DNA of 64,000 nucleotides from IMG/VR virus record IMGVR_UViG_3300011008_000003, one strand, 5' to 3'. The stretch comes from a virus. Its lineage: Duplodnaviria > Heunggongvirae > Uroviricota > Caudoviricetes. Both the position numbers and the translations under genes were made by a program. Positions 3,994 to 8,635 of the stretch are shown in pieces; positions within the stretch are counted from its first letter, which is position 1, and each line of letters begins with the position of its first letter. A model generated the notes under the pieces. The model was not told the DNA's origin, searched no databases, and saw nothing but the letters and a program-made list of their open reading frames with translations.

Positions 3994-4248
3994 TTAAGTG
4001 TTTTTAGCCTTGGCTACTGCGTCCTTGAATTCTTCGTAGACGACGATCTTGCCGTCTATCATAGGACAAATATAGAATTTTACCGGGTCGCCGTTGTGAA
4101 TTTTGTATTTAAACTGAATTTTCGTATTCGGCAGGTAGAATTCCTTAATCTCCGATTCGAAGAGATCGACTTCCTTGCACTTGAAGCCGGCGCGTTCGCA
4201 ATACAGGATTGCGTCATTGAATGTAATCTGAATCCATTTATTATCCAT
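3994..4248 (-). CDS. Hypothetical protein
   Basis: Coupled to gp46 stop, AAGGT RBS. Confidence 0.75.
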   Translation of the reverse strand: MDNKWIQITFNDAILYCERAGFKCKEVDLFESEIKEFYLPNTKIQFKYKIHNGDPVKFYICPMIDGKIVVYEEFKDAVAKAKNT

Positions 4249-6004
4249 AAATTACCTTTAAGTTACTGTATCCGTGTTCTTTCTTGATTTCTATCTTGGA
4301 CGCCACTTCTACGTTCATTTCATTAAGCTTATGCGAAATGATATAGAAACCCAATTTCTTTTTCTTGTTCTTGGCAATCATATTCTTTAAAGTAGAAATG
4401 AAGCCCGTGATACCGGCCGCGTCGATGTTCTGGTCGAGAAGCTCGTCGATCATGCACATGTTGCAAGACCAGTTACTGATGATTCGGCTGATGTCGAAGA
4501 AGCTGAGAAGGATAGCCATGTCGATTCTGGTACGCTCGCCTGCAGAGAAACCCTCGTATGATCTCGGCAGGAGTTCGACAGTAAAGGATTCTTCCATCTG
4601 TTCGTTGAACGTCAGTTCGGTATTCTTAAGCTCGAAATCCTTTAAGTATGCGTTGACAGTCTTATTAAGGATTCCGGTAAGCTTACGGAAGAAGTACGTC
4701 TTGATGCCGTCGTCACCGAGGATGTTTACCAGTTCGGTATCGACCTTGATTTCTTCTTCCAGGCCGTCAATGTCGTGCTTTAACGCATCCGAAGCTGCTT
4801 CGAGCTCGGTAATCCTGTTTTCAGCATCAGACGTGTCGGCTGGACAGGTCTTATTGTTTTCCGCGTCCAGATTATCAAGTTCCTTGTCGAGTTCCGACTG
4901 TGCAGAGTTCTTAGCAACTTCCTCGCCTCGTATCTTTGTCTTAATCGTCTGAATGAATTCCTGCGCTTTGCGGTATTCATCGATCGCAGCGCGGTACGTA
5001 TTGAACTTTTCCTGGAGAGCCGGGATAATCTTCTTTTCGTTTTCATCATATTCTTCCTTCATCTGGTCAAGATGCTTCTTTGCATGTCCTTCATCCAAAG
5101 GCGAGCCGCATACCGGACAGGTCGGCTTCTTCGAAAGCTTTTCCAGCGTACTCGAAATCCGTTCCATAGTGGAATAGGCCATACCGATTTGTCTGTCAAT
5201 ACTAGACACCTCGTTGGCATCAGGACACTCTGGAAGCTTTTCAGTCAGCTCGACGATCTTCTTGTTCGCCATCTCGATATTGCTGTCGGCCTTCTTGATT
5301 CTGTCTTGGCAAGCCTTGATAGAATTGTTAATACGCTGTAAGTTCGCCGTTTTTATCTCGTTGAAACTGTTAATATATTCATTAAGCTTTTTCACATGGG
5401 ACTGGTTGTCTACAATCTGTCTCGTGATTCCATTAAGCTCTGTGGTCTTCAACGCCTGTTCGGAAGCCTTTAACGATTTTCTCTTCTTGACATCCTTGCA
5501 CATAAGGCCGAGGACGTCGATATTAAAGATATTTTCGATTAAGGTTCTTTTCTCGCCGATAGACAGGCTGAGGAACGGCTTGTTGTTGGTAACGCCCATG
5601 GCGACGATATTCTTGAAGAGACGGAAGTTAATCCCGAGCAGCTTGTCGATTTCGTCCTGATTAAGCTTCTTGGAAGAAAGTAGATCCAGTTCCTGTCCGT
5701 TCTTGAGGAATTCGAACTTGGCCGGCTTTAATCCCCTGGTAATTGTATAAAGGTCTTTTCCGATTTTGAAGTCAACCGTGACCTCTAGTCCCTTCCCGTT
5801 CTGTACGTTGACGAGCTCGCCCATCTTGATGTCTCGGTACGGTTTGCCGAAGAGGGCGAATGTCAGAGCGTCCAGGATGGTAGACTTTCCGGCTCCGTTG
5901 ACGGCCATGATTGTATTAAATCCCGGTTGGAATTCAATCTCCGCGCCGGCAGCGCCATAGGACATGATATTAGAAAAACTAAGTTTCTTAAATTCTACAA
6001 ACAT
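4241..6004 (-). CDS. Recombination ATPase, T4 gp46 / Rad50-SbcC-like
   Basis: NGAGKS Walker A, coiled coil with CPVC zinc hook, FSAGE signature, IDE Walker B, IISH. Confidence 0.95.
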   Translation of the reverse strand: MFVEFKKLSFSNIMSYGAAGAEIEFQPGFNTIMAVNGAGKSTILDALTFALFGKPYRDIKMGELVNVQNGKGLEVTVDFKIGKDLYTITRGLKPAKFEFLKNGQELDLLSSKKLNQDEIDKLLGINFRLFKNIVAMGVTNNKPFLSLSIGEKRTLIENIFNIDVLGLMCKDVKKRKSLKASEQALKTTELNGITRQIVDNQSHVKKLNEYINSFNEIKTANLQRINNSIKACQDRIKKADSNIEMANKKIVELTEKLPECPDANEVSSIDRQIGMAYSTMERISSTLEKLSKKPTCPVCGSPLDEGHAKKHLDQMKEEYDENEKKIIPALQEKFNTYRAAIDEYRKAQEFIQTIKTKIRGEEVAKNSAQSELDKELDNLDAENNKTCPADTSDAENRITELEAASDALKHDIDGLEEEIKVDTELVNILGDDGIKTYFFRKLTGILNKTVNAYLKDFELKNTELTFNEQMEESFTVELLPRSYEGFSAGERTRIDMAILLSFFDISRIISNWSCNMCMIDELLDQNIDAAGITGFISTLKNMIAKNKKKKLGFYIISHKLNEMNVEVASKIEIKKEHGYSNLKVIYG

Positions 6005-6129
6005 ACTGGATTAAATATAGAAATATTAATTAAGTTTACGAATGTTTGCGTTTTTATCTGGAAATTAGAAAATATACAGAATATTTTTATTAAATGAAAT
6101 CGATTAAGAAAATTTTCTATATTCGAGAT

Positions 6130-6785
6130 GTAAAAAGATCTTAACGTAATAAGTTCGCAGCATGATGATCGTTATATATAATATAAATGGTCTGGAAACG
6201 AAAGGATATTACGTTAAGTTTAAGGTAGCATCGGCTACCTGAGTCCTGTTCGCAACCGAACGTTTTTTATTACATAGCCAACCAGGTTTTGACAACCACA
6301 GGCAAGAAATCCAGAATCCGAGCGGTCTTCCTAAAGTCCATGCAACATTGGGCGAGGCACCTAAAGAGTCTGGTCGGGTCGGCCCGAGTCAGCAAGCCGC
6401 ATTCGAAAACCCGAAGCCTGACATTGAAGTATTGCCTAGCGAACAATACATATAGCCGCCATTGGCGACATAGGATGTAGCCGGAGTACAGGATGACCAA
6501 CCCGTAAGCCTATGTGTAAGTCCCGAAGATCGACGACATACGGAATACTCAGTGAAGTATGAATCGGTCGTGAGTCTCAGAAGAGATTTTCAGATTCCTT
6601 CTAAGGCTCATGATCTCAGAGCAGCCGAGCCTCGTGAAGAAGTGAATCAAATTCGACTTTACAAAGTATAAAGATTACGGCACTCCAAGTCGATCAAAAT
6701 CTACTAAGTCGATCGAATCGATCAAAGAATAAAATTTATAATATTATTAATGGGAGGAGTCTGCTCCCAGAAACCATTAAGAAAA
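6130..6785 (+). ncRNA. Candidate large structured non-coding RNA (~650 nt)
   Basis: No credible ORF; TATATT box at ~6118; many stems (TTAACGTAAT/ATTACGTTAA, GGTAGC/GCTACC, GTATTG/CAATAC, ACATAGG/CCTATGT, TGAGTCTCAGAAG/CTTCTAAGGCTCA, TTAATGG/CCATTAA). Confidence 0.6.
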
Positions 6786-6839
6786 ATCCAGAAAAAATTC
6801 ATTAAATAAACCGTCCGCGCGGTTTTTTTCTATATTATA

Positions 6840-6928
6840 ACATGTGTTAAGGCTTCGTAATCCTTGGCATATTTCTCATAATAACCAATTAATACGGTCT
6901 CCTATATATCCGGGAGGCCGTATTTTTT
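6840..6928 (+). ncRNA. Candidate small RNA (hairpin + single-stranded linker + terminator)
   Basis: TATATT at ~6831; TGTGTTAAGG/CCTTGGCATA stem; terminator AATACGGTCTCC/GGAGGCCGTATT-T run; no ORF. Confidence 0.5.
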
Positions 6929-7015
6929 ATTAAGGATTTCCAAATAATTCCATTAAGGTTTACATTTTTATTAAAAATTGCTATATTTTAACCAGTCTTA
7001 TAAAAAGGATTAAAT

Positions 7016-8635
7016 ATGTCAAAAGAAATTTTGTTCGACGAAAATGCTCGTGTTAAGCTGATGGCCGGCGTAAATATCCTTGCCGATGCCGTATGTAGTA
7101 CTCTCGGTCCTTCTGGCCGTAATGTCATGTTGTCCAACGGTGTAGTCACCAAGGACGGCGTGTCGGTCGCCAAGGATATCAGTATGGAAGATCCGTTTGT
7201 TGATAAGGGTGTTCAGATGGCTGTAGCCGCCGCTTCCAAGACCAACGATGTCGCCGGTGACGGTACGACCTCCAGTGTCTGTCTCAGCCGCGCCATTGCC
7301 CGTGAAGGATTAAAGATTGTTGCAGCCGGCGCCAATCCGACTGAAGTAAAGGCCGGAATCGATAAAGCTGTTTCTGCTATCGTCGACCAGCTCGATAAGA
7401 ATTCCATTAAGGTAAACGACAAGAAGTCCATTGCACAGGTGGGTACTATCTCCGCTAACGGCGATACCGAAATCGGTAATATGATCGCCGATGCCATGGA
7501 CAAGGTTGGTCCGGACGGTGTTATCACTGTCGAGGAATCCAACACTGCAGAAACCGTTCTCGATGTCGTAGACGGTATGCAGTTCAATAACGGTTACCTC
7601 TCCCCGTATTTTGTAACTGACCAGGAAAAGATGGTTGCCGTTCTCGAAAACCCGGCCATCCTTATGTACGAACATAAGATTTCCAGTGTACAGGAATTGC
7701 TCCCGCATCTTGAATATATCGGCCAGTCCGGTAAGCCGTTGCTGATTATCGCAGAAGATGTTGACTCCGAAGCGCTCGCTATGTTGGTGTTGAATAAGCT
7801 CCGTGGCGCTCTAAAGGTCGTAGCTGTCAAGGCTCCTGGCTACGGCGAATCCAGGAAGAACAATCTCCGTGACATCGCGCTGCTTACCGGCGGCCACGTT
7901 GTTTCCGATGAAACAGGTGTTAAGCTTGCCGATGCAGTCACCCAGGAAATCCTTGGTTATGCCAAGACTGTTAAGGTTTCCCGTGACCATACCATTATTG
8001 TCGACGGTGCTGCTGAAAAGGAATCCGTAGACCAGCATGTCCAGACTCTTAAGGCTCAGCTCGCCTCTACCGAATCCGAATATGACAAGGCTAACCTTGC
8101 AGAACGTATTGCACGTCTGGCTGGCGGTGTCGCTGTCATTAAGGTCGGTGCAGCCACTGAAGTAGAAATGAAGGAAAAGAAAGACCGAGTGGACGATGCT
8201 CTCCATGCAACGAAGGCTGCTGTCGAAGAAGGTATTGTCGCAGGCGGCGGAACTGCCCTAATCCGTGCGGCATCCGCTGTCAAGGTCACTGGAGCTACAG
8301 CTGACGAAGAATCCGGTATTAAGATTATCATGAAGGCAGCCGAAGAACCGGCACGCCAGATTGTTAAGAATACCGGCAAGGAACCGTCCGTTGTGGTTAA
8401 CGAAATCATGAAGCGTTCCGGCAACGAAGGCTACAATGCCAAGACAGGTACGTTCGAAGACCTGGTTGAATCCGGTGTTATCGACCCGGTTAAGGTCACC
8501 AAGAACGCTCTTAAGAATGCCGCTTCTATCGCATCTATGATTCTGACGACTAACTGCGTTATCGTTGAGAAGAAGGAAGACAAGGAATGTTCTTGTCACC
8601 AGCCGCAGATGCCGATGATGCCCGGCATGATGTAA
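7016..8635 (+). CDS. groEL: Group I chaperonin GroEL (Cpn60)
   Basis: TLGP, TKDGVSVAK, GDGTT, GYLSPYF, GGVAVIKVGA, EEGIVAGGG; PMMPGMM tail; own TTTACA-N17-TATATT promoter. Confidence 0.97.
   Translation: MSKEILFDENARVKLMAGVNILADAVCSTLGPSGRNVMLSNGVVTKDGVSVAKDISMEDPFVDKGVQMAVAAASKTNDVAGDGTTSSVCLSRAIAREGLKIVAAGANPTEVKAGIDKAVSAIVDQLDKNSIKVNDKKSIAQVGTISANGDTEIGNMIADAMDKVGPDGVITVEESNTAETVLDVVDGMQFNNGYLSPYFVTDQEKMVAVLENPAILMYEHKISSVQELLPHLEYIGQSGKPLLIIAEDVDSEALAMLVLNKLRGALKVVAVKAPGYGESRKNNLRDIALLTGGHVVSDETGVKLADAVTQEILGYAKTVKVSRDHTIIVDGAAEKESVDQHVQTLKAQLASTESEYDKANLAERIARLAGGVAVIKVGAATEVEMKEKKDRVDDALHATKAAVEEGIVAGGGTALIRAASAVKVTGATADEESGIKIIMKAAEEPARQIVKNTGKEPSVVVNEIMKRSGNEGYNAKTGTFEDLVESGVIDPVKVTKNALKNAASIASMILTTNCVIVEKKEDKECSCHQPQMPMMPGMM

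Follow-up and report, generated by a model that had tools for sequence, protein, structure and literature searches.

The gap between gp46 and groEL is dense in stems

The question raised by this locus is what fills the 1,011 gene-free nt that separate the gp46 and GroEL genes in the window, the whole 64-kb stretch of DNA that was analysed. Sequencing runs that contain window DNA come from bovine, sheep and other gut metagenomes. A preliminary description had taken positions 6130-6785 to be ORF-free, GC-richer than their surroundings and full of stems, and had proposed a large ornate RNA of about 650 nt on the + strand, possibly ROOL or GOLLD or else a new RNA. The gap and its flanks are laid out as follows.

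4241-6004, − strand: gp46 gene, Rad50/SbcC-like (AAA_23, SMC_N, Rad50 zinc hook)
6014-6022, − strand: box of the divergent gp46 promoter
6094-6123, + strand: promoter of the RNA unit, ATGAAA-18-TATATT, with the phage box TTCTATATT at 6115-6123 and a hexamer upstream, found by scanning
6131-6290, + strand: window-specific 5' leader with a long hairpin (6140-6218, 12-bp stem), a GGUAGC hairpin (6224-6239) and, at 6247-6262, a hairpin resembling a terminator, with U6 after it up to 6268
6291-6421, + strand: variant 5' domain, beginning with GACA as in relatives (RNAalifold, covariation)
6423-6528, + strand: core, made up of hairpin P1 (6429-6434/6444-6449), the linker AGCCGCCA, which does not vary, and a long hairpin (6466-6520) that has the apex ACAGGAUGACC and internal loops that are likewise invariant
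6527-6625, + strand: 3' domain, a three-way junction with the tail UCUC (profile match 6421-6624)
6626-6806, + strand: AT-rich 3' trailer (35% GC) with hairpins 6653-6693 and 6747-6780
6808-6830, + strand: intrinsic terminator AAACCGUCCGCGCGGUUU followed by U7 (terminator scan), the likely end of the unit
6828-6836, + strand: next promoter box TTCTATATT, directly after that terminator
6891-6924, + strand: strong terminator followed by U6 (terminator scan), ending a small unit
6959-6987, + strand: groEL promoter TTTACA-17-TATATT, 3' of the small promoter-terminator unit
7016-8635, + strand: GroEL gene (Cpn60_TCP1)

All nine stems that had been read by eye are present, within 1-2 nt of where they had been placed.

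6140-6149/6209-6218, + strand: stem 1
6224-6229/6234-6239, + strand: stem 2
6248-6252/6257-6261, + strand: stem 3
6429-6434/6444-6449, + strand: stem 4, identical with P1 of the core
6468-6474/6509-6515, + strand: stem 5, within the long hairpin of the core
6528-6533/6564-6569 enclosing 6545-6549/6556-6560, + strand: stem 6, GATCGA/TCGGTC, in the variable hairpin of the 3' domain
6571-6583/6598-6610, + strand: stem 7, 13 bp, hairpin H3
6653-6659/6687-6693, + strand: stem 8, in the 3' trailer
6747-6753/6774-6780 enclosing GGAG/CTCC, + strand: stem 9, in the 3' trailer

Folding was compared with that of shuffled sequence, a check set out in the preliminary description. For 6130-6830 the + strand gave a z score of -3.94, with none of 20 shuffles folding as well, against -1.78 for the − strand, in keeping with the proposed structured + strand RNA. 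The signal is uneven along the region, z being -2.97 for 6131-6290, -2.04 for 6291-6625 and -0.54 for 6626-6830; in the last of these, which contains stems 8 and 9, 53 of 200 shuffles fold as well, so that its folding is at chance level. The GC content is 50% in 6291-6625, as compared with 35-36% in the flanks 6131-6290 and 6626-6830 and 21-27% in the rest of the gap, which bears out the reported GC-richness for the central part.

The core is a full-length member of the cow-rumen-2 family

An Infernal search against Rfam 15 identified 6423-6528 (+ strand) as cow-rumen-2 (RF02947; 111 bits against a gathering score of 66 bits; E value 1e-20, or 1.1e-20 on the whole window), the match extending untruncated over model positions 1-106 of 106, and this is the single copy within the 64-kb window. 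By the refuting condition that came with the preliminary description, a strong Rfam hit, the RNA is thus known and not new at its core. Neither ROOL, GOLLD (RF01998), OLE or HEARO (RF02033) nor tmRNA, RNase P, SRP or a group I/II intron matched, either in the whole window at gathering threshold or in 5950-7050 at E values up to 10, and in the latter search no other family came near its cut-off. The suggestion of ROOL or GOLLD consequently has to be given up, while the reported lack of tmRNA, RNase P and intron hallmarks was correct. A blastn search of 6100-6850 against 50,697 GenBank phage records gave no match, and the domains that flank the core matched no other Rfam family in 18 related loci.

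The features by which the family is recognised were found in the window. The P1 loop CCUAGCGAA contains the conserved UAGC and is followed by the linker AUAUAGCCGCCA at 6450-6461, and the long second hairpin has its internal loop AUGUAGC / UAAG and the apex ACAGGAUGACC, all with maximal posterior. Homologues were collected, as had been advised, into a comparison set of more than 40 phage loci, and covariation was assessed in the core helices. Over 20 relatives 94% of the cells are paired and 15 pairs have changed on both sides, a result that none of 500 shuffles matched, with slid controls dropping to 30-42% paired. Compensatory changes occur in all 6 pairs of P1 and, in the long hairpin, in 6 of the 7 outer and 3 of the 4 inner pairs. 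The 35 G-U cells, about 7% of the paired core cells in the 20 relatives, are compatible only with an RNA read from the + strand. Members differ inside the core by one-base indels (alignment A2, columns 16, 24, 43 and 70), which, taken together with the two-sided compensatory changes, exclude a shared reading frame, and the ORFs inside 6130-6785 are short (33-76 aa) and start with TTG or GTG, in agreement with the description of the region as ORF-free.

Two further likenesses were considered and rejected: AGUAC...GACC, which we take to resemble the sarcin-ricin loop, and GGAUGUAGCUGG, which presumably resembles E. coli 4.5S RNA. In 5950-7050 neither an rRNA nor an SRP model gave a match at E values up to 10, and in both cases the opposing strand is not conserved as such a structure would require.

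Conserved 5' and 3' domains enlarge the RNA

As judged by sequence comparison, the 106 nt catalogued in Rfam form no more than the core of a larger RNA, which measures about 335 nt and consists of three domains: a lineage-variable 5' domain, the core and a conserved 3' three-way junction with a UUCCU hairpin and an AGGCU-UCUC end. The helices of the two outer domains are the following.

6299-6303/6416-6420, + strand: closing helix of the 5' domain, CAGGC/GCCUG
6311-6315/6369-6373, + strand: 5'-domain helix, accompanied by the invariant GGUCUUC/GAGG(C)ACC and a hairpin at about 6338-6351
6374-6378/6410-6414, + strand: 5'-domain helix UCGGG/CCCGA, enclosing the hairpin 6380-6399
6527-6531/6612-6616, + strand: closing helix of the 3' domain, AGAUC/GAUCU, the same two segments pairing in every member
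6531-6573, + strand: variable hairpin of the 3' domain, larger in the window than in relatives
6571-6610, + strand: hairpin H3, with the family elements UUCCU (6595-6599) and AGGCU (6604-6608)

For the 5' domain, RNAalifold applied to the window and its syntenic relatives gave 36 pairs, 12 of them compensatory (CCAGA/UCUGG in the window corresponds, for example, to CUGGA/UCCAG in relatives), and the hairpin covaries over nine loci, among them those of three small phages. The window-type domain is common to L211, L052, L159, L131, L088, L048, L049 and L050; it is found in the gp46-adjacent copies of 230-kb and 415-kb phages and in metagenomic variants, and its first part recurs in three small phages. 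The typical 5' domain (UUCCUCGGAGCGAAG ... GUCGGUAGAGGG, with the helix CUAAU-UCCUC/GAGGGUUAG) is absent from the window, where profile positions 1-136 are unmatched. Since both types of 5' domain carry compensatory changes, the structure exceeds the Rfam model in both lineages. When metagenomes were searched with a loose window-type pattern, 4 of 120 stretches were true relatives, all close to L032, and a second 5'-domain pattern gave only chance matches in coding repeats of viral contigs.

The 3' domain was examined with a profile built from typical members only, the window and its syntenic relatives being left out. This profile matches window positions 6421-6624 with an E value of 2.7e-36 and high posterior over UUCCUUCUAAGGCUCAUGAUCUCAGAGCAG, which it aligns to the family segment UUCCUGGAUAGGCUUGUUGUCUC...CAG. 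By this alignment the 13-bp stem at 6571-6610 is the family's UUCCU hairpin, and the GATCGA/TCGGTC stem (6528-6569) belongs to the variable hairpin, which is enlarged in the window. H3 is 90% paired in 20 relatives and shows one-sided G-U changes only. The closing and variable helices are per-sequence duplex predictions, with register shifts between members.

The limits of homology and covariation place the conserved RNA at approximately 6291-6625, exactly the GC-rich part of the gap. The large ornate RNA of the preliminary description is thereby upheld for about 335 nt, a conserved and covariation-supported stretch that goes well beyond the 106-nt motif, and reduced elsewhere, as stems 1-3 (6140-6261) and stems 8 and 9 (6653-6780) fall in flanks to which no homologue was found. 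This holds for both the leader (6131-6290) and the trailer (6626-6830) among all loci fetched, syntenic relatives included. The syntenic relative L032 has the same TTCTATATT box, from which the conserved GACA start is separated by no more than about 45 AT-rich nt, and in other relatives the promoter lies immediately 5' of that start. In the leader, the strain variant A6259G falls within a hairpin and keeps its pair as G-U. The enlarged RNA reaches about 600 nt in some phages, L048, L049 and L050 carrying large extra hairpin domains, and in the window its roughly 335 nt lie within a transcription unit of about 700 nt.

Two tertiary contacts appear possible, one between CAGGA (6490-6494) at the core apex and the UCCU(G) loop, and one, suggested by the RNAalifold model, between AGCC (6454-6457) and GGCU (6605-6608), which would compete with the UUCCU hairpin. 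Both sides of these contacts are almost invariant, so that covariation carries no information on them. That the UUCCU loop might pair with ribosome-binding sites further downstream was also considered, and rejected because the complementarity is poor and inconsistent by eye.

The conserved RNA lies within a single transcription unit

The proposed start just after a TATATT box agrees with the position of the box TTCTATATT at 6115-6123, a sequence that occurs 75 times in the window as against 1 copy expected. From 6123 to 6828 no further copy lies on the + strand, and no recognisable promoter was found by the window scan immediately 5' of 6291, so that the conserved RNA is most simply transcribed from the box at 6115-6123. 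Transcription would then pass through the weak terminator-like hairpin (6247-6268), which separates this sole promoter from the conserved RNA, and end at the strong terminator 6808-6830. A sigma70-like sequence at 6289-6317 (TTGACA-17-CAGAAT) was rejected as the promoter of the RNA, because a start there would remove helices that covary with those of relatives and because it is absent from the relatives themselves.

Nearly all TTCTATATT copies lie on the + strand, between 11.8 kb and 50 kb of the window, and their array marks a very dense series of short transcription units with one common promoter box. A small separate unit (6828-6930) stands right after the RNA unit and consists of the box at 6828-6836, about 50 nt made up of hairpin and linker, and the strong terminator at 6891-6924.

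Assembled contigs from RNA libraries cover parts of the unit; they come without strand, ends or level, and the libraries may include phage DNA. In a sheep-gut metatranscriptome a 501-nt contig spans 6173-6673 with 6 differences and a depth of 10.7, the flanking genes having depths of 9.5-12.5. A second run of the same sheep study yielded a 190-nt contig over 6331-6520 at depth 19 (gp46 6, GroEL 47) and no contig over 6072-6205 or 6608-7009, gaps that by themselves prove nothing. Two further RNA libraries contain contigs of other paralogues, which match only the invariant 6474-6509. The contigs fit expression and read-through of the internal hairpin, short of proof.

Multiple copies occur in jumbo phages and diverged forms in small phages

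The exact core pattern was found in 35 IMG/VR stretches, whose parent records were then searched with Rfam. Two complete genomes with terminal repeats, of 415,750 and 424,163 bp, carry four copies each, a 411-kb genome has three and incomplete jumbo contigs have one or two. Sub-threshold copies (50-63 bits, cut-off 66) occur in three phages whose genomes measure 28-35 kb; one of these is complete, with terminal repeats. In species genomes the exact pattern matched only goat-gut MAGs binned as Methanobrevibacter, Coprovivens, Succinivibrionaceae and Bacilli. The contigs concerned (L206-L214, 173-191-kb contigs in Methanobrevibacter MAGs and contigs in other bins, with one or two RNA copies each) are probably mis-binned jumbo-phage contigs, and a host assignment from the bins was rejected since the taxa are mutually inconsistent.

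The enlarged RNA is intergenic in every locus, and the next gene, 90-265 nt away, has the same orientation in all contexts but L014, where the RNA has a terminator of its own behind it and the gene that comes next is convergent. The genes that follow are unrelated to one another; most often they encode a T4_baseplate-family protein, otherwise a product without a Pfam family, and in the window GroEL. In three more distant jumbo phages the region upstream of gp46 holds co-oriented ORFs and no RNA, one of these phages having three copies elsewhere. Typical copies each have their own promoter and share the following layout, in 5' to 3' order.

Promoter of the TTTACA...TAnnTTTG type, with the start near (G)ACAU
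5' domain with the main helix CUAAU-UCCUC/GAGGGUUAG, compensatory in 8 of 9 pairs
Junction helix covarying by eye: CCAUU/AAUGG, CAUC/GAUG, CGUU/AACG, CAGC/GCUG
Core, 3' domain and about 35 further conserved nt
In most cases TATAAATA, a late promoter of the T4 type that serves the next gene

In most typical loci the late promoter TATAAATA stands between the RNA and the next gene, which makes that gene independent of the transcript of the RNA; most typical loci have no terminator after the RNA. In two of the small phages, L215 (G009:27000-35568) and L217 (G010:25000-33326), a diverged long form lies behind a TATAAATA-like box near the genome end, beside the genes for the terminase large subunit and portal, and in G009 it stands at the head of the terminase/portal block.

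About 35 nt after the UCUC tail (CAGAUAUUUUGAACGUGUGUAUAGAUAGAU) are kept up to TATAAATA between paralogues that precede different genes (L015:8600-8669, L023, L026 and L034). Because this segment is conserved in front of different genes, the promoter, the RNA and the late promoter may be duplicated or moved together, as a single cassette.

Action in trans compared with other readings

Beyond the demonstrated structure and homology, we infer that the RNA acts in trans and docks a partner. In full, we hold it somewhat better than an even prospect that 6291-6625 (+ strand) is an enlarged cow-rumen-2 RNA of about 335 nt, contained in one unit, that acts in trans as a partner-binding structural RNA. 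Lying between the box at 6115-6123 and the terminator at 6808-6830, it would be made as, or cut from, a precursor of up to about 700 nt, composed of the window-specific hairpin leader, the conserved RNA and the unstructured trailer. The invariant single-stranded elements (AGCCGCCA, GAUGUAGCC, ACAGGAUGACC, the two GUAAG and the UUCCU loop) would build a core of fixed three-dimensional shape to dock a single conserved partner, most likely a host or phage protein, and the variable periphery and the multiple paralogues per genome might adjust dosage or timing. We favour action in trans because the core and several loops hardly vary, whereas the helices show covariation and lineages have swapped peripheral domains, and because each paralogue has its own promoter. 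Further reasons are that the copies precede unrelated genes, mostly with a late promoter of their own, that the L014 copy stands by itself, having a terminator behind it and a neighbouring gene that is convergent, and that in the window a terminator and a small promoter-terminator unit isolate the RNA from groEL.

The main rival is a cis-acting leader that would serve antitermination of the HK022 put or EAR kind, stabilisation or translational gating of early transcripts entering late or structural genes. Co-orientation with the next gene everywhere but in L014, the constant position directly behind a promoter and the lack of a terminator before the next gene in most typical loci are all what such a leader would show; so is the place of the long form beside the terminase large subunit and portal genes in the 28-35-kb phages, at the block head in G009, and the two terminator-like sites before groEL (6808-6830 and 6891-6924) could be substrates of an antiterminator. 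We nevertheless consider it rather unlikely, if possible, since the downstream genes are unrelated to one another and mostly have their own late promoter after the RNA, the RNA of L014 is followed by a terminator and a convergent gene, and the first terminator-like hairpin of the window lies upstream of the conserved RNA. Moreover, about 335 nt with a conserved multi-domain core is several times the size of the known antiterminator RNAs. Another rival is that all of 6131-6830, about 650-700 nt, might be a single mature ornate RNA to which the hairpins of leader and trailer belong as integral peripheral domains, comparable to the forms of about 600 nt in the family. The stretch is bounded by one promoter box and one strong terminator, the 501-nt contig (6173-6673) crosses the terminator-like hairpin and passes the 3' domain, the leader folds better than its shuffles (z -2.97), and L048, L049 and L050 show that large extra hairpin domains are tolerated. 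This reading seems doubtful to us in view of the lack of homologues of leader and trailer even in the syntenic relatives, one of which has a leader of about 45 nt, of the chance-level folding of the trailer, of the fall in GC from 50% to 35% at both borders and of the promoters directly before the GACA start in relatives; in addition, one sheep run covers 6331-6520 only, with nothing at 6072-6205 or 6608-7009.

It is very improbable that the core is a ribozyme, self-cleaving or otherwise catalytic, that processes its own transcripts. Near-invariant internal loops and junctions in a covarying scaffold, present in several phage intergenic copies co-transcribed with downstream genes, would suit one, but no Rfam ribozyme family matched even at E values up to 10, the metatranscriptome contigs cross the core and both junctions unbroken, and no cleavage-site signature was identified. 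Scarcely credible is an element acting as DNA (an origin of replication, or a site for packaging or recombination) or a − strand gene for a small protein. Most members do have − strand stop-free stretches of 44-89 codons, and in the small phages the element adjoins the terminase gene near the genome end; yet the helices are maintained by compensatory changes, the roughly 7% of G-U cells would turn into A-C mismatches if the helices formed on the opposite strand or as a cruciform, the one-base indels in the core break any common frame and the + strand folds better than the −.

Compared with the structural RNA in trans that we favour, a bolder reading is decidedly unlikely, though it is tempting to speculate on it given that the RNA is common to phages as different as T4-like jumbo phages, with up to four paralogues, and phages of 28-35 kb. 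It might then be a widespread essential phage RNA that has its own function, either forming a particle (RNA-only or RNA-protein) on the invariant core or acting, in connection with the expression of late or structural genes, as a ribozyme of a new kind or an RNA that modifies the polymerase, with the leader and internal terminator of the window regulating its amount.

Relation to known RNA families

Cow-rumen-2 reportedly stems from the 224-motif survey of Weinberg and colleagues in 2017, and to our knowledge neither an organism nor a function has been attached to it so far. HK022 put and its kin are cis-acting processive antiterminator RNAs. They share with the enlarged cow-rumen-2 RNA a structured element behind a promoter, co-orientation with the downstream genes and several copies per phage genome, whereas the latter is several times larger and is usually followed by genes with their own promoter, so that the likeness is one of layout only. 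The main text of the 2017 survey (PMC5737381) does not discuss cow-rumen-2, and the literature search found the name only in the Rfam 15 paper, which lists it among the families improved with R-scape (PMC11701678).

With the catalogued motif the window RNA shares the P1 hairpin with its UAGC loop, the long hairpin with the invariant AUGUAGCC / ACAGGAUGACC / GUAAG and the origin in the ruminant gut. The motif is 106 nt long and of the Rfam type sRNA gene, whereas the window RNA is promoter-led, measures about 335 nt and adds covarying 5' and 3' domains that Rfam does not model; the enlarged RNA is carried by phages in 1-4 paralogues per genome, with diverged forms of 50-63 bits in those of 28-35 kb. 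Although the core is already catalogued, Rfam and the papers searched lack the architecture of three domains, the carriage by phages with its copy numbers, the existence of two alternative 5' domains and the diverged long forms of small phages. ROOL and GOLLD are likewise large, multi-domain and phage-borne, were first found in rumen and other metagenomes and have no known function. They show no sequence or structure match to the window RNA at gathering threshold or at E values up to 10, and the family of the window RNA is multi-copy and stands beside late or structural genes, not in tRNA clusters. ROOL averages 581 nt (PMC5737381), as compared with about 335 nt for the conserved window RNA, and assemblies of ROOL and GOLLD have been resolved by cryo-EM (bioRxiv 10.1101/2024.12.08.627333).

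Cow-rumen-2 thereby gains a biological home as a promoter-led three-domain RNA of rumen phages, present in multiple copies in genomes of 411-424 kb and found beside packaging genes in phages of 28-35 kb, and the Rfam model covers only one third of the molecule. The domain borders define constructs for probing, structure determination and partner pull-downs, and the window can be annotated with a conserved RNA at 6291-6625, the rest of the 650 nt being lineage-specific leader and trailer. The RNA is a further sign that structured RNAs are a major investment of large gut phages.

In unrelated loci the RNA is flanked by runs of short GC-rich hairpins with loops of 3-4 nt, as at L024:5330-5411 and at 6224-6262 of the window. 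Examples are GGC-AAC-GCC, GGC-UUC-GCC, GGUAGC-AUCG-GCUACC and GUUCG-CAAC-CGAAC, which share no sequence homology, and these hairpins may serve to stabilise the transcript or to punctuate it.
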